The notes under the pieces: model-generated
Told to the model about the DNA's origin: nothing
What the model saw: only the letters and a program-made list of their open reading frames with translations
The model's database searches: none
Made by a program: the position numbers and the translations under genes
Shown: positions 20,605-46,367 of the stretch, piece after piece
How the letters are laid out: the number at the start of each line of letters is the position of its first letter
How positions within the stretch are numbered: the stretch's first letter is position 1
NCBI GenBank assembly: GCA_964616715.1
Contig: CAZTRL010000003.1
Span: 1 to 50,484, forward strand
Length of the DNA: 50,484 nucleotides
Reading direction: 5' to 3'
Origin: an uncultured archaeon
Lineage (GTDB): Archaea > Aenigmatarchaeota > Aenigmatarchaeia > QMZP01 > JAFGSV01

Positions 20605-21867
20605 ATGGAAGTGATGAAGGCTATAAGGCAAAGGAGAAGCGTGAGGGTATTCAGCCGCAAGGCTGTGAGCAGGAATGCCATCGAAGGTGTCATAGAGGCC
20701 GCGCAGTGGGCACCGTCCGCTTGCAACAAGCAGATGTGGGAATTCATAGTCGTGAGGGAAGAAAGCGTCAAGAGGCGCATCGTGGAGGAGGCCAAGGCGG
20801 TCCCGTTCATGAGGAACGCTCCAGTCATCGTGTATGTCCTGTACCGGAAGGACGTCAACCCCGACAGGCATGCAAATGTCCAGAGTGCGGCGGCGGCAGT
20901 GCAGAACATGCTCCTTGCGGCGCATGCGAAAGGCCTCGGATCGGTCTGGGTATGTCAGTACGGCAGCGAGAAGGTGATAAGGAGGCTGCTTGGGATACCC
21001 CGCGCTTTTGTAATAGTCTGCGCAGTGGCGCTGGGCTACCCCTCGTCCAGGCCGGCCGCGCCCAGGAGGAGGCCTCTTGATGAGATAATCCATGAAGAGA
21101 CGTACTCATCCAGGAAGAAGGCGGCGGCAAACGATCCCGCTGAATGGGACGAAGGCAGCCTCACGGACTACAGGAATAAGGGAATAAGGGCGACATCACC
21201 GTCCGGAAACGCTCATGACCCGTCCTTCAGGGAGGAGATGGGTACCGAGATACTCCTCGCGGAAAGAAGCATAAAAGGGCTGAAGGTGCTCGACGTGCTG
21301 GGCTTCTCCGGAAGCTACACGACAAGGATTGCAGAGGCGCCAAGGGAGCTGCACGTGCACGACACGTCTGCGGAGTCGCTTGATTTCATAAAGGAAAGGC
21401 ACAGGATGGTCGGGGGGCGGGGAACGCTGAAAGCGAGCGTTGGCGGGCTCTACGAGCTTCCGTACCCGGATGCGAGCTTCGATGCGGTGACATGCTTCAA
21501 GAAGCTCGAGATGGTGCCGGAGCCGGAGAGGCTGCTTTCAGAGATATCGAGGGTGACGAAGAAAGGAGGAAGGCTCGTCGTGACATTCTGGAAGACGTTC
21601 AGCATCCCCAGCATCAACTATCGCGTCAAGGTGGGGATGCTGGGAAGAAGGGGCATGGCGAGCAATGAGGGCCCGGCGAAGCCGCTTCCTGCGGGCCGCG
21701 TAAGGGAGATGATAAGGAAGGCAGGTTTCAGGATTGTCAGCGAGACCGGGATAAACATAGTTCCTAACAGGTCGATAGGAAGGAGGCTTAACCTTGAAGG
21801 GAAGCCGTTCAGGGGGCCGCTGAAAGGTTTGTGCAGGACCATGTTTCTCGAATGCGAGAGATTGTGA
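20605..21867 (+). CDS. Fusion protein: N-terminal nitroreductase-family (FMN) domain plus C-terminal class I methyltransferase-like domain
   Basis: 420 aa. The N-terminus AIRQRRSVRVFS...AAQWAPSACNKQMWEFIVV...NMLLAAHAKGLGSVWV is nitroreductase-like. The C-terminus LKVLDVLGFSGSYT...FDAVTCFKKLEMVPEPERLLSEISRVTKKGGRLVVTFW is Methyltransf_11-like. Confidence 0.75.
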   Translation: MEVMKAIRQRRSVRVFSRKAVSRNAIEGVIEAAQWAPSACNKQMWEFIVVREESVKRRIVEEAKAVPFMRNAPVIVYVLYRKDVNPDRHANVQSAAAAVQNMLLAAHAKGLGSVWVCQYGSEKVIRRLLGIPRAFVIVCAVALGYPSSRPAAPRRRPLDEIIHEETYSSRKKAAANDPAEWDEGSLTDYRNKGIRATSPSGNAHDPSFREEMGTEILLAERSIKGLKVLDVLGFSGSYTTRIAEAPRELHVHDTSAESLDFIKERHRMVGGRGTLKASVGGLYELPYPDASFDAVTCFKKLEMVPEPERLLSEISRVTKKGGRLVVTFWKTFSIPSINYRVKVGMLGRRGMASNEGPAKPLPAGRVREMIRKAGFRIVSETGINIVPNRSIGRRLNLEGKPFRGPLKGLCRTMFLECERL

Positions 21868-37373: not shown

Positions 37374-38726
37374 ATGGGACTCAGGGAAAAGCTTCTTGCG
37401 GGGGACATGAAGATAGGAGTCTGGGGAACCGGATTCATAGGCTTCACTACGATGGCCAACATGGCATACAACGGCATAAGCTGCATAGGATATGACGTCG
37501 ACGAGGACAAGGTAAGGACCATAAACGAGGGAAAGATACCGATAGAGAATCTCGAGTACTGGCTCGGCTTCGACATAGAGAACCTCGTCGAGAGGGGAAT
37601 GCTCCGCGCCACGACTGACGTGGCTGAGATGATGGACCCGGCGATAGCAGTCCACTTCGTCTGCATACCAACGGAGAAGGGCGGAGAGCCATACGACAAC
37701 ATTCTGAAGGATGTCATCGGAAAGATTGCGGGGCTGAAGAAGTCGGGGCACAGCGAACCGCCTGTCGTGATAGTGGAGTCGACTCTCACGCCGGGGAGGA
37801 GCGACATGATAGTGCTCCCGATACTAAGGAATGCGGGAGTCGATGTCGGGAGGGACATGCTGTACGGCGTCGCGCCAAGGAGGGACTGGTTCGTCTCCCC
37901 GGAGAAGAGCCTGAAGAAGCTTCCCAGGGTGTTCGGCGGCACCACGCAGAAGACCACCGAGGCCATGAGGGATGTCCTGTCCCTCGTATGCGACAGCCTC
38001 GTGCCCGCCCCCGACCACAAGCACGCCGAGATGGTGAAGTCCATAGAGAACGCCTACAGGCACATGGAGATAACGCTTGCGAACCAGCTCTCGCTGGCAT
38101 ATCCAGACGTCAACATGACGGAGGTGCTGCGCCTCGTGGGGACGAAATGGAACATCGGGACGTATCATCCCAGCTTCGGGACCGGAGGCTACTGCATACC
38201 GCTCTCGAGCAAGTATGTGCTCCTCGGGGCGAGGCACCCGGAGAAGGTGACAATACTGAAGGAGACAATATCGTCCGACGGGCGCCAGCCTGAAGAGGTG
38301 GCGGCCAGCCTGAAGAGGCGCGGCATACGGAGCGTCGGGATACTGGGGCTCGCCTACAAGGGTGACATAAAGGTTACCATACTCTCCCCTACCATAAAGC
38401 TTGCAAAGGAGCTTTCGCGTCTTGGGATATCGGTGAAGGTCAACGATCCGTACTACACAGACGAGGAGATAAAGAGTGTATCGGGTGTCGGTTCCTTCGA
38501 CTTCCCGGACGGGCTGTCGGAGTTCGACGCCGTCCTGATAGTCGCCGACCACCAGCACTACAGGTTCACCCCGCACAACTCCATCCTTAAATCCCTTGGC
38601 TCGTGCAGGATAATACTGGACAATACCGAGATATGGAAGGACATAGACTTCTCATCGAGGGGTATAGAATACCATGTGGCAGGTGATGCGGGTTGGCTGG
38701 AGCCCCTGACTTCAATGAAGAAGTAA
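37374..38726 (+). CDS. UDP-glucose/GDP-mannose dehydrogenase family, UDP-N-acetyl-hexosamine 6-dehydrogenase-like (WecC/WbpA/Cap5O type)
   Basis: The track start 37371 is TTG and the ATG is at 37374. Motifs are KIGVWGTGFIGFTTMANMAYNG (Rossmann), GGYCIPLSSKY (catalytic Cys box) and VGILGLAYKGD (C-terminal domain). Confidence 0.8.
   Translation: MGLREKLLAGDMKIGVWGTGFIGFTTMANMAYNGISCIGYDVDEDKVRTINEGKIPIENLEYWLGFDIENLVERGMLRATTDVAEMMDPAIAVHFVCIPTEKGGEPYDNILKDVIGKIAGLKKSGHSEPPVVIVESTLTPGRSDMIVLPILRNAGVDVGRDMLYGVAPRRDWFVSPEKSLKKLPRVFGGTTQKTTEAMRDVLSLVCDSLVPAPDHKHAEMVKSIENAYRHMEITLANQLSLAYPDVNMTEVLRLVGTKWNIGTYHPSFGTGGYCIPLSSKYVLLGARHPEKVTILKETISSDGRQPEEVAASLKRRGIRSVGILGLAYKGDIKVTILSPTIKLAKELSRLGISVKVNDPYYTDEEIKSVSGVGSFDFPDGLSEFDAVLIVADHQHYRFTPHNSILKSLGSCRIILDNTEIWKDIDFSSRGIEYHVAGDAGWLEPLTSMKK
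38284..38318. repeat. 15-nt perfect direct repeat gccagcctgaagagg, two copies offset by 20 nt, inside the dehydrogenase CDS
   Basis: The copies are at 38284-38298 and 38304-38318. They are read in different codon phases (QPEE vs ASLKR). Confidence 0.9.
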
Positions 38727-39526
38727 GGCGCATAGTGCGCACGGCGCTGGCCGAGGACATAGGGAGCGGTGACATAACTACGGAGAGCACCGTGCCCTCA
38801 GGCATACGTGTCCGGGCCTCGATAGTCGCAAAGGAGAGCTGCGTCGTCTGCGGCCTTGACATCGCAAAAGAGGTGTTCTTAGGTATAGGGAAAGTCGATT
38901 TCGATAAGGCAGTGGACGACGGCGAGAGCGTGCCGGGGGGCCGGGAGATAGCCGTGGTTTCAGGCGACGCGCAGGTGATACTCAAGGGTGAGAGGACTGC
39001 GCTCAACTTCCTCCAGAGGCTTTCCGGCATAGCGACAGTCACAAGGAAGCTAGTCGAGAAGTCAGGGAGGAAGGCCATGATAATGGACACTAGGAAGACC
39101 ACGCCGGGCCTCAGGGTCATCGAGAAGTACGCGGTCAGGTGCGGGGGCGGCACGAACCACAGGAAGGGCCTTTACGACGAGATACTCATAAAGGACAACC
39201 ACATAAGCCTCGTGGGCCTCGGGAGCGCGGTCGCCGCCGCGAGAAAGACCGGGAAGGCCGTCGAGGTCGAGGCGAGGGACATGGGCGAGGTAAGGGAGGC
39301 TATTGCCGCCGGGGCCGACATAATACTTCTTGACAACATGCCTGCAGAAGAGATGGCCAAGGCCGTAGAGGAGATAGGCGGAAGGGCCGCCACCGAGGCC
39401 TCCGGAGGGGTCACGGAGGAAAACATAACAGAGATAGCGGCGACGGGGGTCGACCGGATATCCGTCGGCTCGCTCACGCACTCCGTCAGGTCCGTGGACA
39501 TAGGCATGTACATGAAGAAGGTGTAA
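38693..39526 (+). CDS. nadC: Nicotinate-nucleotide pyrophosphorylase (quinolinate phosphoribosyltransferase)
   Basis: 277 aa. Motifs are ALAEDIGSGDITTEST and DTRKTTPGLRVIEKYAVRCGGGTNHRKGLYDEILIKDNHI. The only available start is TTG 38693, which overlaps the upstream gene by 34 nt. Confidence 0.85.
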   Translation: MAGAPDFNEEVRRIVRTALAEDIGSGDITTESTVPSGIRVRASIVAKESCVVCGLDIAKEVFLGIGKVDFDKAVDDGESVPGGREIAVVSGDAQVILKGERTALNFLQRLSGIATVTRKLVEKSGRKAMIMDTRKTTPGLRVIEKYAVRCGGGTNHRKGLYDEILIKDNHISLVGLGSAVAAARKTGKAVEVEARDMGEVREAIAAGADIILLDNMPAEEMAKAVEEIGGRAATEASGGVTEENITEIAATGVDRISVGSLTHSVRSVDIGMYMKKV

Positions 39527-41690: not shown

Positions 41691-42206
41691 ATGGCGCTGA
41701 GGCCAGCAAAATGCTACAGCACGGTGAAGAGGCCCAATACGAGGGTATCCAGGCGCAGGCCTAGGAAGTCATACGTCAAGGGCGTGCCTGTCCCGAAGAT
41801 AAGGTCGTTCGAGGCGGGCAACGCCAAGGAAGACTATAAGGTCAGGGCGTACCTAGTAACAAGGGACGCCGTGCAGATAAGGCACAACGCCCTTGAGGCC
41901 TCGAGGATAGCGGCGAACAAGAAGCTTGAATCGACGCTCGGAAGCGGGATGTACTTCATGAAGGTTCTCGTCTTCCCGCATCACGTCCTGAGGGACAACC
42001 CGATAGCGACGGGGGCCGGCGCCGACAGGTACCAGACGGGCATGCGGCTTTCCTTCGGGAGGCCGACCTCCACGGCGGCTCAGGTGAAGAGCGGGCAGAA
42101 CGTCATAGAGGTCCGCGTCCCCGTCGGCAAGGAGAGCGTCGCGAAGAGGGCGCTGAAGATTGCATCCTCGAAGATACCGGTCCCCTGCAACATAGTCTTC
42201 AAGTGA
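41691..42206 (+). CDS. rpl10e: 50S ribosomal protein L10e (uL16)
   Basis: 171 aa. MALRPAKCYSTVKRPNTRVSRRRPRKSYVKGVP is the typical L10e N-terminus. Confidence 0.9.
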   Translation: MALRPAKCYSTVKRPNTRVSRRRPRKSYVKGVPVPKIRSFEAGNAKEDYKVRAYLVTRDAVQIRHNALEASRIAANKKLESTLGSGMYFMKVLVFPHHVLRDNPIATGAGADRYQTGMRLSFGRPTSTAAQVKSGQNVIEVRVPVGKESVAKRALKIASSKIPVPCNIVFK

Positions 42207-42292
42207 TGGCCGCCCGGTTTCTTCGTGCAATGGAGCCGGTGATTTTTTCAATATTATAAATCTCGCCTGACAATATTCATATTGGTGTCCAC

Positions 42293-44539
42293 GTGTACAC
42301 GGCAAGTCTCTTCGAGGCTGACGGCCGCCCAGAGCTTGGGTTCAAGGCCTCAGCCGTCTCTGGTCTGAAGAAGGCGGGTATTCCCGTGACCTCGGGGTTC
42401 GTGATAACTCCCAAGGCGCTCGAATCGTTCATCTCCGTAAACGGAATAAGGTCCAAGGTCAGGCAGTTCCACGAGAACGTGGACAGGAGCCCCTCCGGCC
42501 TGAGGAAGGCCGAGGAGGGCATAAAGGACCTCTTCCTGAACTCCGTGATACCAGGAGAGGCAAGGAGCGCCATCCTTGCATCTTACGGGGAGCTCTCGGT
42601 CTCCGGGGACATACGGAAGGCAGAGGCCGCGTTCAGCTTCATAAAGGCTGGAAGGGACCACGCGCTCGTGGCCGTCAGGCCCTCAGTCGTGAGGGAGGAG
42701 AAGGACAGCTTCGCTGGCGTCCTCGAAAGCTTCGTTAACGTCTCCGGCGAGGACGATGTGCTCAAGCATGTCAAGCTCTGCTGGGCGTCGCTCTTCTATC
42801 CGAGCACCTCAATGTACACGGAGGGGAGGGGCACCGGAACCCTGGATATGTCAGTGATAGTCCAGAAGATGGCAATCTCCGAGAAGAGCGGCACTGTGGC
42901 GACGGGGTTCGGCGGCGACAAGGTGCTCGTCGAGGCAACCTGGGGACTCGGGAAGGCCGCAAGCTCGGGGCTGGTGACCCCGGACGAGTACCTGCTGGAC
43001 TCCGGCGGAAGGCTCATCGAGAAGAACATATCGAAGAAACTGTGGATGCTTGAGAGGAACGACATGACGGGAGTCACGTCAAAGGTCCATGTCCCGGGCA
43101 GCAGGATGGACGCGCAGGTCCTCTCGGACGCGGAGCTGAGGAAGCTTTTCGAGCTCGGGAGGAGGGTGGCCGGCGCCTTCCAGGGACAGCAGGTCATGGA
43201 CTGGTGCATAGGAAGGAACAGGGTCATAATAACCGATGTAAAGCCCGGAAACTGCGACATAACACCCGTCCGCGAGGAACACCCGAGCGGGGACATACTC
43301 GTCACGGGGAGGTTCGTCTCCCGCGGGACGGCAACAGGGACTGTGAAGACCATAGGGCCATCTGGAGGCGCATTCGGGCCGGATGACATAGTTGTCATGG
43401 AAAGCTCGTCTATAGGCAACCTCATATCAGTTAAGGATGCCTCCGGGGTGATAGTCGACGAGGGCGGCAGGATGTCCAACTTCGGCATCCTGGCGAGGGA
43501 GATGGGAATTCCCGCGATTGCGGGAACGCACAAGGCAACGTCGGTCTTGAGGCTCGGCGAGCGCATAACCATGGTAACGGAGCTCGGGAAGGTCATGGCA
43601 GCCCAGGAGCCCGTCAATGAGCCGCCGGAAGGTGCCGGCCTTGAAGGCGCCATGCAGGATTCATACCAGCCCCAACATATCCAGGAGGACGCGTACGGAA
43701 GCCAGGGACAGGAGCCGCCGCAGCCGGATGAGATGCCGATGCCTTTCATCCAGGAGGGAGCAAACGAGCAGCCGACAGAAACTGAAACGCGTGCAGGGGC
43801 TGCGGTACCCGGTGAAGTGAGGCTCTTCGTGAGGGCGGGGCCGGATCTTATAGGCAGGGTGGCCCAGGCGGAGGGATACGTCATATACAACCTCCAGCCG
43901 GACCCGTCTTTGATGGGAGGGCCCGCAGCGCAGGAGACGCGCCCCGTATGGGCTTCCTGCACGGGGGAATCGGACTTCCAGTGGGCATCCGGCATAGCCA
44001 GGAGGGCGAACGATGCCGGGAACGCCGAGTCGGGTGTTCTCGTGCCTGTAGTCAGGGGAAGGGACGACCTCGAGAAGTTCAGGTACGGCGTGCCTGCCGG
44101 CGCGGGGCTCGGGCTGTCCATCAGGACACCGGCAATGCTGCACTCTGCGGAGAGCATAATAGCAGATGGTGTCGGCATGGTCAACATAGAGCTGGGGCCG
44201 CTGGCGCAGCTCTACACGGGCCTGCAGAAGCCCGACCAGGAGATAGGCGAGTCCCTCCTCGGCATGATAGGGAAGGCTGCTGAGATATGCGCCGGGAAGG
44301 GCATCACCTGCTGCGTGACGCTGGGAAGCCACCACCTGACCGACTGGAACATAGAGTCGCTCCTAAGGAAGGGAGTAGGCACGCTGTGCGTCGATGCCAG
44401 GTCGGCCGAGAACGTCAGGGCAGCTCTCGGAAGGATAAGGGATAAGATGTCTCCCGCAGGAGGCGAAGAGCCCGGAGCCGGCAAGGATGACGACGCACCG
44501 TTCCCCTTCGACTTCAGTCCGCCTTTTTCTTCTTCTTAG
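42293..44539 (+). CDS. PEP synthase / pyruvate phosphate dikinase-like protein (ATP-grasp N-domain plus swivel domain) with the catalytic His replaced by Asn and a divergent C-terminal domain
   Basis: 748 aa with a GTG start. N-domain blocks are LVAVRPSVVREEKDSFAGVLESFVNV and VEATWGLGKAASSGLVTPDEY. The swivel motif reads GGRMSNFGILAREMGIPAIAG, against the canonical GGxTSHAAIxARExGIPAV. Confidence 0.8.
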   Translation: MYTASLFEADGRPELGFKASAVSGLKKAGIPVTSGFVITPKALESFISVNGIRSKVRQFHENVDRSPSGLRKAEEGIKDLFLNSVIPGEARSAILASYGELSVSGDIRKAEAAFSFIKAGRDHALVAVRPSVVREEKDSFAGVLESFVNVSGEDDVLKHVKLCWASLFYPSTSMYTEGRGTGTLDMSVIVQKMAISEKSGTVATGFGGDKVLVEATWGLGKAASSGLVTPDEYLLDSGGRLIEKNISKKLWMLERNDMTGVTSKVHVPGSRMDAQVLSDAELRKLFELGRRVAGAFQGQQVMDWCIGRNRVIITDVKPGNCDITPVREEHPSGDILVTGRFVSRGTATGTVKTIGPSGGAFGPDDIVVMESSSIGNLISVKDASGVIVDEGGRMSNFGILAREMGIPAIAGTHKATSVLRLGERITMVTELGKVMAAQEPVNEPPEGAGLEGAMQDSYQPQHIQEDAYGSQGQEPPQPDEMPMPFIQEGANEQPTETETRAGAAVPGEVRLFVRAGPDLIGRVAQAEGYVIYNLQPDPSLMGGPAAQETRPVWASCTGESDFQWASGIARRANDAGNAESGVLVPVVRGRDDLEKFRYGVPAGAGLGLSIRTPAMLHSAESIIADGVGMVNIELGPLAQLYTGLQKPDQEIGESLLGMIGKAAEICAGKGITCCVTLGSHHLTDWNIESLLRKGVGTLCVDARSAENVRAALGRIRDKMSPAGGEEPGAGKDDDAPFPFDFSPPFSSS

Positions 44540-45692
44540 AGGCCTTGAGCTTCCTCTCGTATGCAGCTACCCATTTGGCCGTCTTCTCCGCGTCCGCGTA
44601 GGTGTTGCCGACGCCGGAGGTGTTGCCGACGCCTACTATGACGACCTTGTCGCCCTTCTTTGTGAGTGAGATGCTCCTTGAGACGCAGTCCATCACGGTA
44701 TCGTATGACTTTATCATGCTCATGCGAAGCGGCATTATGGCCTCCTCGGAGGACATCTTGACCACTATGCTGTCCATCGGTATGCCGCCCTTCACGACCG
44801 CGTCCTCTATGTAGCTCCTCTCGACTCCCGGGCCGCCCATCGCGATTCCGACGCCCTCCGCGACGGATCCGGTCTTCTCTCCCTCGAGCTTGGCAGCCGC
44901 GTCTATCGTTATTATGCGGGCTATCTTGTGATTCTTCATGACCTTCTCCACGGCCTTCCCTGGATAGCCGATCCTGCCGCCGGGGCCCTTCGCCTTTAGG
45001 AGGAATGCCTGCCTGCCGTCTATCCTCTTGGAGGCCATGACGACGCCCTCCTCTATCTCGGTCAGCTTCTCCTTTTCTATCATCTTGGCCACCATCCACG
45101 GCCCTATGGCGTCGCCTATGGGCTCGCCCCTGGAGAGGGCGCCGGTCCCCTCGTATAGGGACTTTGCTATCCTCTCTATTATCGGCAGCTGCATCTGTAT
45201 TATCATCGCGAGCTGGTAGGACTTGGTCTTCTTTATGGTCTCCACGAAGTGCCTGACTATCTTCGCAAGCATGTAGAGCTCTATGCCGCCGGACACGCCC
45301 ATCTGGATGTTGGCCTTCTTCTCCTCGTCCGCCTCGGGGGCCACCTGGTCCGCGAAGTACTTGAACTTCTCCTTCTCGTTTCTTATGAGGTGGTCCAGCT
45401 TCTTCACGACCCCGTAGGGGTCCAGGCTCACGGGCTCTATCATGTAGAACTCGAAGAACCTGTCGACGCTCTCCCTCACCTTCTTCGAGGGGTTCCTGCC
45501 TATTGACTCCAGCACGAGCTTCCTGGACTTGGCCGACATCACCTCGAGCCTCACCGCACTGCTCTCGAGCTTGCCCACCATCTGGAAGAGCATTATCCTC
45601 GGATAGAACATGAAGAATACCATGAAGAATATGAGCCAGACTAGCCATGACACTATGTCTCCGCCTTGCCCGATGAGCTGGTCGAGGTACAT
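44514..45692 (-). CDS. Conserved archaeal membrane-anchored protein of unknown function (resembles DUF1512; family name from memory)
   Basis: 392 aa. It has an N-terminal TM segment (VSWLVWLIFFMVFFMFY), a coiled middle region, a C-terminal GVGNTSGVGNTY duplication and a KKKKKAD tail. It has a 26-nt convergent overlap with the PpsA-like gene. Confidence 0.6.
   Translation of the reverse strand: MYLDQLIGQGGDIVSWLVWLIFFMVFFMFYPRIMLFQMVGKLESSAVRLEVMSAKSRKLVLESIGRNPSKKVRESVDRFFEFYMIEPVSLDPYGVVKKLDHLIRNEKEKFKYFADQVAPEADEEKKANIQMGVSGGIELYMLAKIVRHFVETIKKTKSYQLAMIIQMQLPIIERIAKSLYEGTGALSRGEPIGDAIGPWMVAKMIEKEKLTEIEEGVVMASKRIDGRQAFLLKAKGPGGRIGYPGKAVEKVMKNHKIARIITIDAAAKLEGEKTGSVAEGVGIAMGGPGVERSYIEDAVVKGGIPMDSIVVKMSSEEAIMPLRMSMIKSYDTVMDCVSRSISLTKKGDKVVIVGVGNTSGVGNTYADAEKTAKWVAAYERKLKASKKKKKAD
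44601..44636. repeat. In-frame 18-bp tandem duplication (15/18 identical; perfect 15-mer ggtgttgccgacgcc twice)
   Basis: The copies are at 44601-44615 and 44619-44633. They encode GVGNTS-GVGNTY on the minus strand. Confidence 0.9.
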
Positions 45693-45791
45693 GGAATCAC
45701 CCAGAATGCTATTTTATGTTGTCGAGGTAGAATATATATTAACCCCAAACAAGTTTAAATTTGGAGAGACAATTGTTAAGTAGTGACTTCT

Positions 45792-46367
45792 ATGTTGCTT
45801 AAGGGACTCCTGGAGTGGAAGATTCTGGCCGCGGTGTTTGCGATACTAATAGTGGCGTCGTCGGCACTCGTGAGCAACAGCGGCATAAAGGACTTCTTCC
45901 TCAATTCGACGGGGGACTTGGGGGACTGGATGGGGGATTCGCCGTTCGGTTCCATCTTCGCCACGCCGGAGAAGGAAGGCACGGCCGTGACCATAACGCT
46001 CATGGCCGACATGCTTGAGCTGGAGATGGAGGTGCCGGTGAACGTGACGTCCGGGGACACCGTGATAAGGAACTTCAAGGGGCCCATAACCTTCGATTTC
46101 GCCAACAACAGGACATCCTTCGTCCTTTCGGGGAGCGACTTCTCATTCGACACGGGGCTCGGCGACACCACAGTAAGGGACGTCAGGATAACCAAGCTCA
46201 TCCTCGATGACATGGACTTCGTCGTCGAAAGTGAGAAGACGAACATAACGGGGACCGGGGACACGATAGAGATATACGACTTCGAGGGAGACATCACTGC
46301 CGGAAGGTACCTGGAGCTGAGGGGCAATGTTTCAAGTGTCAAGGACGGCAAGTGGTCCATAAGCTGA
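45792..46367 (+). CDS. Hypothetical N-terminally anchored/secreted beta-rich protein
   Basis: The track start 45783 is GTG and the ATG is at 45792. MLLKGLLEWKILAAVFAILIVASSALV is the hydrophobic anchor. It contains several N-x-S/T sequons and has no recognisable family. Confidence 0.6.
   Translation: MLLKGLLEWKILAAVFAILIVASSALVSNSGIKDFFLNSTGDLGDWMGDSPFGSIFATPEKEGTAVTITLMADMLELEMEVPVNVTSGDTVIRNFKGPITFDFANNRTSFVLSGSDFSFDTGLGDTTVRDVRITKLILDDMDFVVESEKTNITGTGDTIEIYDFEGDITAGRYLELRGNVSSVKDGKWSIS

Follow-up and report, generated by a model that had tools for sequence, protein, structure and literature searches.

PpsL, a phosphoenolpyruvate synthase-like protein of an Aenigmatarchaeota archaeon with asparagine in the phospho-histidine column

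In the established mechanism of PPDK, phosphoenolpyruvate (PEP) synthase (PpsA) and rifampin phosphotransferase (RPH), a histidine acts as nucleophile in the first partial reaction, and the threonine two residues before this phospho-histidine is the regulatory site of PDRP. Archaeal PpsA, as represented by the structures 8a8e and 9dae (S. marinus 'MAPS') and by the models TIGR01418 and NF005057, carries an ATP-grasp domain, a swivel domain and a PEP/pyruvate-binding barrel, an order that is found again in the protein described here. It is a very abundant enzyme that forms a 24-mer held by its C-terminal helix, and a moonlighting role has been suggested (10.1101/2022.08.11.503304). A preprint has argued that the phosphate of P. 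furiosus PPSA sits on Thr440 rather than on His442. We have analysed a stretch of 50,484 nucleotides of contig CAZTRL010000003.1 (hereafter the window), in which the coding sequence at 42293-44539 on the forward strand, named PpsL, encodes a His-less PEP-synthase-like protein of an Aenigmatarchaeota (DPANN) archaeon. We lean towards reading PpsL as a pseudoenzyme that descends from PpsA and acts in nucleotide binding, as a scaffold or in regulation.

The phosphocarrier column and the barrel

An initial annotation of this gene had located the phosphocarrier motif at 43457-43525 and an asparagine codon, AAC, at 43478-43480; re-translation gave DEGGRMSNFGILAREMGIPAIAG for the motif, and both its position and the codon of Asn396 proved exact. 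The further claim that this asparagine stands in the column of the catalytic histidine held in three kinds of alignment. Against P. furiosus PpsA (8a8e), and likewise against 9dae, phmmer set 'rmsNfgil' over 'rtsHaaiv'; a hidden Markov model (HMM) alignment of 206 relatives again put Asn396 in the phospho-His column, a MAFFT alignment agreed, and none of the alignments placed a neighbouring His in the catalytic column. A protein search returned ~18 orthologues, 40-51% identical to PpsL, from independent metagenomes or metagenome-assembled genomes (MAGs) named Candidatus Aenigmatarchaeota or Aenigmarchaeota. The Asn is invariant in 17/17 orthologues, all of which read GG[RS]R[LM][CS]N, and a sequencing error at 43478 (AAC for CAC) is ruled out because the residue recurs in independent orthologues.

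The column of the regulatory Thr, two residues before the Asn, holds Leu or Met in the family (Met394 in PpsL), and the sole His of the PpsL swivel domain is H412, where most orthologues have Gln. With Asn invariant in the His column and the neighbouring Thr also gone, the initial conclusion that canonical ping-pong phosphotransfer cannot run is supported. Cys395 was considered as a replacement phosphocarrier and rejected, as PpsL itself has Ser395 and canonical enzymes also have Cys or Ser there.

The coding sequence is intact, with 748 codons and a GTG start. By the list of open reading frames (ORFs) and their translations no earlier start is possible after the upstream stop, and the N-termini of all orthologues bear out the start position. 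Its features are given below, with disorder judged in part by the predicted local distance difference test (pLDDT).

42293..44539, + strand: complete PpsL coding sequence, 748 residues, GTG start, stop codon 44537-44539
42293..43252, + strand: ATP-grasp (PPDK_N) domain, residues 1-320 (PF01326, E 9e-50), with K18 (42344-42346) and R129 (42677-42679) kept
42587..42667, + strand: insertion of ~27 residues (99-125, '...IRKAEAAFSFIKAGRDH') immediately ahead of the VAVR strand, by alignment
43199..43243, + strand: apparently remodelled ATP-grasp Mg/phosphate triad D303, D315, K317 (canonical Glu, Gln, Arg), by alignment to RPH-Lm
43280..43603, + strand: swivel ('PEP-utilizers mobile') domain, residues 330-437 (PF00391, E 6e-14; pLDDT ~80-89)
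43457..43525, + strand: former phosphocarrier motif DEGGRMSNFGILAREMGIPAIAG, with Asn396 for the catalytic His and Met394 for the regulatory/phospho Thr, by alignments
43604..43807, + strand: predicted disordered, P/E/Q-rich linker from the swivel to the C-terminal domain, residues 438-505, by pLDDT and identity
43808..44449, + strand: degenerate PEP/pyruvate-binding barrel, residues 506-719, with terminal helix 702-719, by hhalign and Foldseek
within 43808..44449, + strand: substitutions in the catalytic columns of the barrel, R611 (44123-44125), G635-P636 (44195-44200) and T676 (44318-44320)
44450..44536, + strand: predicted disordered acidic tail ending in ...DDDAPFPFDFSPPFSSS (consensus [DE]-F-x(2-5)-[SA]-F-S), by pLDDT and orthologue motif

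The ATP-grasp N-domain and the swivel domain had been called readily recognisable, and both were matched by Pfam (PF01326 and PF00391), with PPDK_N at residues 14-314 (E 9e-50) and PEP-utilizers at 363-427 (E 6e-14); the Pfam search returned no match of PpsL to PEP-utilizers_C (PF02896). The NCBIfam PpsA equivalog models matched only residues ~22-436, the first two domains, and scored 211.8 bits against a cutoff of 598 (NF005057) and 210.4 against 739.75 (TIGR01418). An AlphaFold2 model made from the family alignment (mean pLDDT 75.8) was confident for the ATP-grasp and swivel domains, predicted disorder at 440-506 and 720-748 (pLDDT <50), and gave the C-domain (506-719) as an eight-stranded alpha/beta fold ending in the long helix 702-719. 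Foldseek matched this model to N. meningitidis PpsA (2ols, E 1e-30), to PPDKs and to the RPH ATP domain 5hv6 (TMt 0.81-0.84), and its C-terminal part to the PpsA core structures 8a8e_A and 9dae_A as well as to HpcH-type aldolase barrels. Where the canonical enzyme has a structured swivel linker, PpsL has a floppy one of ~70 residues, which varies from 10 to 92 residues across orthologues with a mean identity of 19.5% and has pLDDT <50 at 440-506.

The C-domain is a true homologue of the PEP/pyruvate barrel, since the profile of the family C-domain matched that of canonical PpsA C-domains in hhalign with a probability of 99.1% (E 1e-18, 164 columns). In PPDK numbering, the Mg ligand E745 has become R611 in PpsL (Lys in most orthologues), N768-D769 has become G635-P636 and C831 has become T676 (Thr or Ser among orthologues); R561 is not conserved, with Gly in the PpsL column, and the NPMLGxRG loop with R617 is deleted in the PpsL family. 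By this alignment, which is uncertain over the N-terminal third of the barrel, all of the PEP/pyruvate/Mg catalytic residues appear to be replaced or deleted. The description of the C-terminal ~230 residues as only loosely TIM-barrel-like is thus borne out, as a homologous fold with every catalytic residue changed or deleted. Judged from these residues, PpsL would be unable to bind or convert PEP or pyruvate in the canonical way, and the reaction pyruvate + ATP -> PEP + AMP + Pi should not run in either direction. PpsL lacks the phospho-His and the barrel residues of PEP synthase (EC 2.7.9.2) and scores below the equivalog cutoffs; because these three defining family tests fail, it is not to be filed as a PEP synthase, or entered as one in metabolic maps.

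Nucleotide site, selection and His-less relatives

The ATP-site residues of PpsL were assigned by alignment to the rifampin phosphotransferase RPH-Lm, the ATP contacts of which had been tested by mutagenesis (PMC4844700). Lys22 and Arg117 of RPH-Lm correspond to K18 and R129 of PpsL, both invariant in the core family. Glu297, Gln309 and Arg311 correspond to D303, D315 and K317, and this position set reads D-D-K in every core-family sequence and E/Q/R in 36/40 His-bearing relatives. Residues K18, R129, Q191, M193, E214, D303, D315 and K317 are invariant across the core family, as is the adenine hinge VQKM, and the phosphate residues of the ATP-grasp domain appear from these alignments to be kept or conservatively remodelled. 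The insertion at 99-125 (27-28 residues vs 7-13 in standard PpsA; low pLDDT) has invariant A110, A113, I117, G120 and R121 ('..AL.LIKAGR'). DPANN-type PpsA carry an insertion of this type whether or not they have the His, and ordinary PpsA lack it; its presence in His-bearing members makes it a clade feature not tied to His loss, and it was rejected as a functional novelty.

The ratio of nonsynonymous to synonymous substitution rates (dN/dS), computed by the Nei-Gojobori method on the least saturated orthologue pair (92% identical), came to 0.17 over the whole protein; by region it was 0.08 (ATP-grasp), 0.17 (swivel), 0.14 (C-domain) and 0.35 (linker). More distant orthologue pairs gave 0.10-0.17 overall, and the ATP-grasp domain is the most conserved of PpsL, with 55% mean identity beside its dN/dS of 0.08. 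Because dN/dS is low, we take PpsL to be functional, with all three folded domains under purifying selection. When a single genome of each GTDB species was scanned, the family turned up in 12 of these species-level genomes, all labelled Aenigmatarchaeota or 'uncultured archaeon', as full-length intact ORFs that span 714-783 residues, and identity fell sharply from 42% for the family to ~31% for ordinary PpsA.

The catalytic column was read out after an exhaustive profile search over 1.84 billion representatives; among the aligned domains it held H in 208, N in 42, S in 8, K in 5 and Y in 4, and F, Q, P, I, R, D or C in a few. Features were counted among three-domain representatives of 650-999 residues (40 His-bearing, 37 His-less outside the core family and 17 of the core family), as follows.

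N768-D769 kept: His-bearing 33/40; other His-less 0/37; core family 0/17
C831 kept: His-bearing 33/40; other His-less 2/37; core family 0/17
E/Q/R triad kept: His-bearing 36/40; other His-less 15/37; core family 0/17
K18/R129 kept: His-bearing 39/40; other His-less 33/37; core family 17/17
ERKxLLE-type C-terminal helix motif: His-bearing 15/40; other His-less 30/37; core family 6/17

Since the Asn-Asp pair occurs in 0/54 His-less vs 33/40 His-bearing three-domain relatives, the PEP/pyruvate site appears to have gone wherever the His has, and this strict co-loss offers a simple criterion by which dead PpsA homologues can be flagged. The oligomerisation element of the archaeal PpsA 24-mer, as judged by its motif, appears to be preferentially kept among His-less homologues. 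The source names of the His-less sequences fall into one group of Aenigmatarchaeota (P0067, P0076) and a second, a separate Pacearchaeota/Nanoarchaeota clade (P0104 with His, P0203 with Asn). In a crude neighbour-joining tree, from which no number of independent His losses is claimed, a few fully canonical sequences (P0071, P0081) were intermingled with His-less ones. By its stripped barrel, D/D/K triad, long floppy linker and new acidic tail, the PpsL family seems to be the most derived branch. A search of the literature on His-less PpsA homologues found no paper describing them. The profile search also yielded many giant proteins of 1000-2300 residues with one PPDK_N domain and, behind it, two to five swivel domains in tandem, all of which keep GGxTCH (e.g. 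P0092, P0101-P0108, P0117-P0141).

At its C-terminus PpsL has, in the AlphaFold2 model, the helix 702-719 where the 24-mer oligomerisation helix lies, and an 'ERKxLLE' motif is present in 6/17 core-family sequences, several as AEKKILLE. The tail motif [DE]-F-x(2-5)-[SA]-F-S is found in all complete orthologues and in no other ORF of the window or of 12 related loci. The tail was considered as a proteasome-type HbYX motif and rejected, as the distance from the Phe to the C-terminus varies (FSSS, SFS, FSLL, SFLT). The tails of Pacearchaeota/Nanoarchaeota PpsA, His-bearing and His-less, are also acidic with an aromatic motif (...KKVFDVFS, ...ELNIFD, ...VLDIF, ...FDFDEGYNQ; P0095, P0104, P0114, P0146, P0174, P0196, P0159, P0203) and resemble ...PFDFS..FS of PpsL. 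An acidic-aromatic tail may be a docking motif shared by DPANN PpsA-type proteins and independent of catalysis.

Candidate functions of PpsL

The initial annotation had offered a pair of readings, a pseudoenzyme or regulator on the one hand and an ATP-grasp enzyme with a new chemistry on the other, and the pair agrees with every test run. As far as sequence can tell, PpsL fits the operational definition of a pseudoenzyme, with the fold kept, the catalytic residues lost and purifying selection in force. The role that we envisage for it would be non-catalytic, or at least not that of a dikinase. The ATP-grasp domain would still bind a nucleotide or phosphate ligand, as its constraint, the conserved K/R pair, VQKM and D/D/K suggest, and the His-less swivel domain would dock on it; Asn396 would take the place of the His, able to form hydrogen bonds but not to accept phosphate, and would keep the docking geometry. 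The barrel remnant and the C-terminal helix might mediate self-assembly in the manner of the archaeal PpsA 24-mer, and the acidic tail with its FDF...SFS motif might recruit a partner. A nucleotide-sensing scaffold or regulator of this kind, the likeliest reading, would have evolved from an abundant oligomeric enzyme once its lineage no longer ran the PEP synthase reaction.

Several observations weigh against this reading. PpsL is the fastest-evolving annotated gene of a syntenic block of >20 kb, with 42-51% identity, where L10e reaches 68-80%, DUF1512 66-77%, SecD 70-80% and the sugar-nucleotide enzymes 56-65%; the range of PpsL is overlapped only by that of the unannotated ORF 45783-46367 (45-62%). 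Thr136 of RPH-Lm, which contacts the alpha-phosphate, corresponds to S146 of PpsL, a position that varies among S, T, A and V in orthologues, and the oligomerisation motif is weakened in PpsL itself (RIRDKM). All of the sequences compared derive from metagenomes. Finally, the invariant, coordinated change from E/Q/R to D/D/K looks like a site that was rebuilt, not abandoned, and a rebuilt site suits a new chemistry as well as it suits a sensor.

That new chemistry is the foremost of the rival explanations, itself an unlikely one: PpsL would be an ATP-grasp enzyme independent of His, in which the D303/D315/K317 site cleaves ATP and delivers phosphate or AMP directly to water or another acceptor, with the swivel and barrel remnants as a lid or as substrate-binding modules. 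It draws on the ATP-grasp domain being the most constrained of the protein (dN/dS 0.08, 55% identity), on the invariance of K18 and R129 and on that of D/D/K after a coordinated change. In RPH-Lm, Glu297Ala still turns over ATP, so that the exact Mg ligand is dispensable (PMC4844700). The wider group argues the other way, as many other His-less relatives have decayed triads (GSE, CGE, SGK, KDS, ED[AS]), which would mean that ATP chemistry has been lost there, and no candidate substrate gene is specifically linked to PpsL in the syntenic loci. We also know of no precedent for ATP cleavage without the His in this superfamily, which counts against such a chemistry.

The remaining rivals are progressively less likely. 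It is hard to credit a split system, in which the ATP-grasp domain of PpsL phosphorylates a His on a separate protein. Phenylphosphate synthase has its ATP-binding and His-carrying parts on separate subunits, stand-alone ATP-grasp homologues function in multi-subunit dikinases, the best N-domain match in the PDB is the ATP-grasp-only 9goj, and the ATP-site residues of PpsL are largely kept; however, no stand-alone swivel gene was found within the window or the ~20 kb surrounding any orthologue, and the protein's own swivel domain, kept under selection, would compete for the docking site. Very improbable is a PEP synthase or other PEP-utilising enzyme with a different phosphocarrier (Ser395/Cys395 or another His). 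The preprint's proposal for Thr440 speaks for it, as does the Cys or Ser that every orthologue has at position 395, but the Thr is Met or Leu here, Cys or Ser at that position is ancestral and shared with canonical enzymes, no His is conserved in the swivel domain, the barrel has no PEP/pyruvate/Mg residue and the scores lie far below the equivalog cutoffs. An artefact or decaying pseudogene, through an error at 43478 or drift towards loss, can be dismissed as the least likely of all, for although PpsL is the fastest-evolving gene nearby apart from ORF 45783-46367 and the family has weak TTG/GTG starts, Asn recurs in 17 independent orthologues, the ORFs are intact, dN/dS is 0.08-0.17 in the folded domains and the promoter and Shine-Dalgarno sequence are conserved.

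If PpsL is a pseudoenzyme as favoured here, a 750-residue protein has been kept by selection in streamlined genomes after loss of its reaction, which argues for a second function of archaeal PpsA, so far only speculated from its abundance and 24-mer architecture. More boldly, and with considerable doubt, DPANN archaea might repeatedly have converted the cage-forming PEP synthase into a non-metabolic protein, with the PpsL branch as the end point, a megadalton ATP-sensing scaffold or an undescribed ATP-grasp chemistry, in which D/D/K would be a rebuilt nucleotide site, Asn396 a 'dummy' phosphocarrier, the C-domain an assembly domain on a tether and the C-terminal motif a new docking site; if so, the scaffold role would be specific to a reduced or symbiotic lifestyle. 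Members of the PpsL family are annotated by IMG as 'pyruvate,water dikinase' or 'phosphoenolpyruvate synthase/pyruvate phosphate dikinase', and a metabolic reconstruction of Aenigmarchaeota uses 'pps' to close glycolysis without pyruvate kinase (PMC8407114). If those 'pps' genes are of the PpsL type, the last glycolytic step and the gluconeogenic entry would be missing, with greater dependence on a partner.

Genomic setting and comparison with known systems

The neighbourhood of PpsL was annotated with Pfam and compared among syntenic loci, with the following features.

~4500-41600: cell-surface glycan/nucleotide-sugar island, by Pfam annotation
20605-21867: nitroreductase-methyltransferase fusion in the island
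38693-39526: nadC, embedded in the island
41691..42206, + strand: gene for ribosomal protein L10e (uL16), conserved upstream neighbour (PF00252 in syntenic loci)
42240..42292, + strand: putative own promoter and leader of PpsL, with a T-run after rpl10e, the TATA box ATTATAAA (42253-42260), a CAATAWT element and a GGTG Shine-Dalgarno sequence before the GTG
44514..45692, - strand: DUF1512 membrane-protein gene, convergent with PpsL (PF07431/PF23542 in syntenic loci)
45783-46367, + strand: ORF of 194 residues without a Pfam match, with an N-terminal hydrophobic segment, 45-62% identical in all syntenic Aenigmatarchaeota loci

After the glycan island the gene order is rpl10e, PpsL, DUF1512, ORF 45783-46367, secD/secF and a geranylgeranyl-reductase-like gene. 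The 3' ends of PpsL and DUF1512 overlap by 26 bp (44514-44539), and their convergent arrangement occurs in the core family only, at all loci that extend far enough. The island holds several GT1, GT2 and GT4 glycosyltransferases, three PMT_2-type mannosyltransferase-like and two LPG_synthase_TM membrane proteins, together with three radical-SAM enzymes (two B12-binding), two UDP-sugar dehydrogenases, epimerases, a DegT aminotransferase and a flippase. The L10e, SecD and DUF1512 of the window are 66-80% identical to their counterparts in Aenigmatarchaeota MAGs; because of these identities, and because the species-level genomes with the family are all Aenigmatarchaeota or 'uncultured archaeon', the window comes from an Aenigmatarchaeota DPANN archaeon. 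Searches with tblastn using canonical PpsA, RPH-like and His-less queries found no second ppsA in the 50 kb window, which is the entire contig, and Pfam annotation found no pyruvate kinase or PPDK among its other ORFs.

Promoter regions were compared among the window and the loci L005 and L010-L021. A consensus of AGATTATAAA (TATA box), ~12 variable bases and CAATAATCAAcAGGGTGTTTTT with TTG or GTG stands upstream of 12 orthologues, the proteins of which are ~45% identical, and the combined AGATTATAAA-CAATAATCAAcAGGGTGTTTTT pattern has one occurrence in the window, with none expected by chance. By comparison with the archaeal promoter consensus, this region looks like a strong promoter of PpsL's own with a Shine-Dalgarno sequence, and the CAATAAT element is possibly a regulator site. 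The start codon is TTG or GTG in 12/13 core-family genes and ATG in distant His-less homologues and canonical relatives. That a weak start is conserved behind a promoter so close to consensus hints at translation that is tuned and possibly low.

The gene rpl10e lies upstream of PpsL in 12/12 species-representative genomes, and also upstream and co-directional of the distant His-less P0020, P0069 and P0079, whose other neighbours differ (loci L006, L090, L092). It adjoins a canonical Bathyarchaeia ppsA divergently (L023) and is missing beside the His-less and His-bearing relatives found in a DUF357 context; in M. jannaschii, ppsA and rpl10e (MJ0542/MJ0543) are also adjacent. A functional link or operon of rpl10e and PpsL was rejected, given PpsL's own T-run, TATA box and Shine-Dalgarno sequence, the canonical ppsA neighbour and the lack of rpl10e in the DUF357 context. 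The simpler reading is that their adjacency is possibly an inherited old synteny.

Among known systems, archaeal PpsA is the best sequence match of PpsL (8a8e, E 9e-44, residues 12-432), and PpsA 2ols is its best fold match (E 1e-30). Unlike archaeal PpsA, PpsL has no phospho-His or Thr, has lost the barrel residues and has a D/D/K triad, a ~70-residue linker and an acidic tail. Its closest apparently functional relatives are the His-bearing DPANN-type PpsA (P0071, P0081; Pacearchaeota P0104), which share the 27-28-residue insertion before VAVR and, in some cases, an acidic aromatic tail. Unlike PpsL, they keep H, E/Q/R and R-N-R-R-E-N-D-C, and the His-bearing P0071 and the Tyr variant P0067 (Aenigmatarchaeota) share the same locus context with DUF357 upstream. 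The other His-less homologues from DPANN (P0020, P0021, P0069, P0079; Aenigmatarchaeota, Nanoarchaeota) resemble PpsL in that the His is replaced, mostly by N and also by S, K, Y, Q, P or I, and the Asn-Asp pair is lost. They are only 26-36% identical to it and have no FDF...SFS tail, and in these four the PF02896 barrel is still detectable, unlike in PpsL.

Proteins of the rifampin phosphotransferase and PigC type have an ATP-grasp domain homologous to that of PpsL, with ATP-contact residues that map one to one, and the NCBIfam RPH and PigC models match only this part of PpsL, far below their cutoffs. Unlike PpsL, these enzymes carry the swivel domain C-terminally, after the substrate domain, and depend strictly on the swivel His825 (PMC4844700). 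The extra C-terminal domain of Geobacillus/Bacillus pyruvate kinase (2e28, 3t05) matches residues 311-435 of PpsL weakly (E 2e-5 and 2e-4). This domain, which is probably regulatory, is a case of the swivel fold kept outside the dikinase reaction, but fused to a different enzyme.

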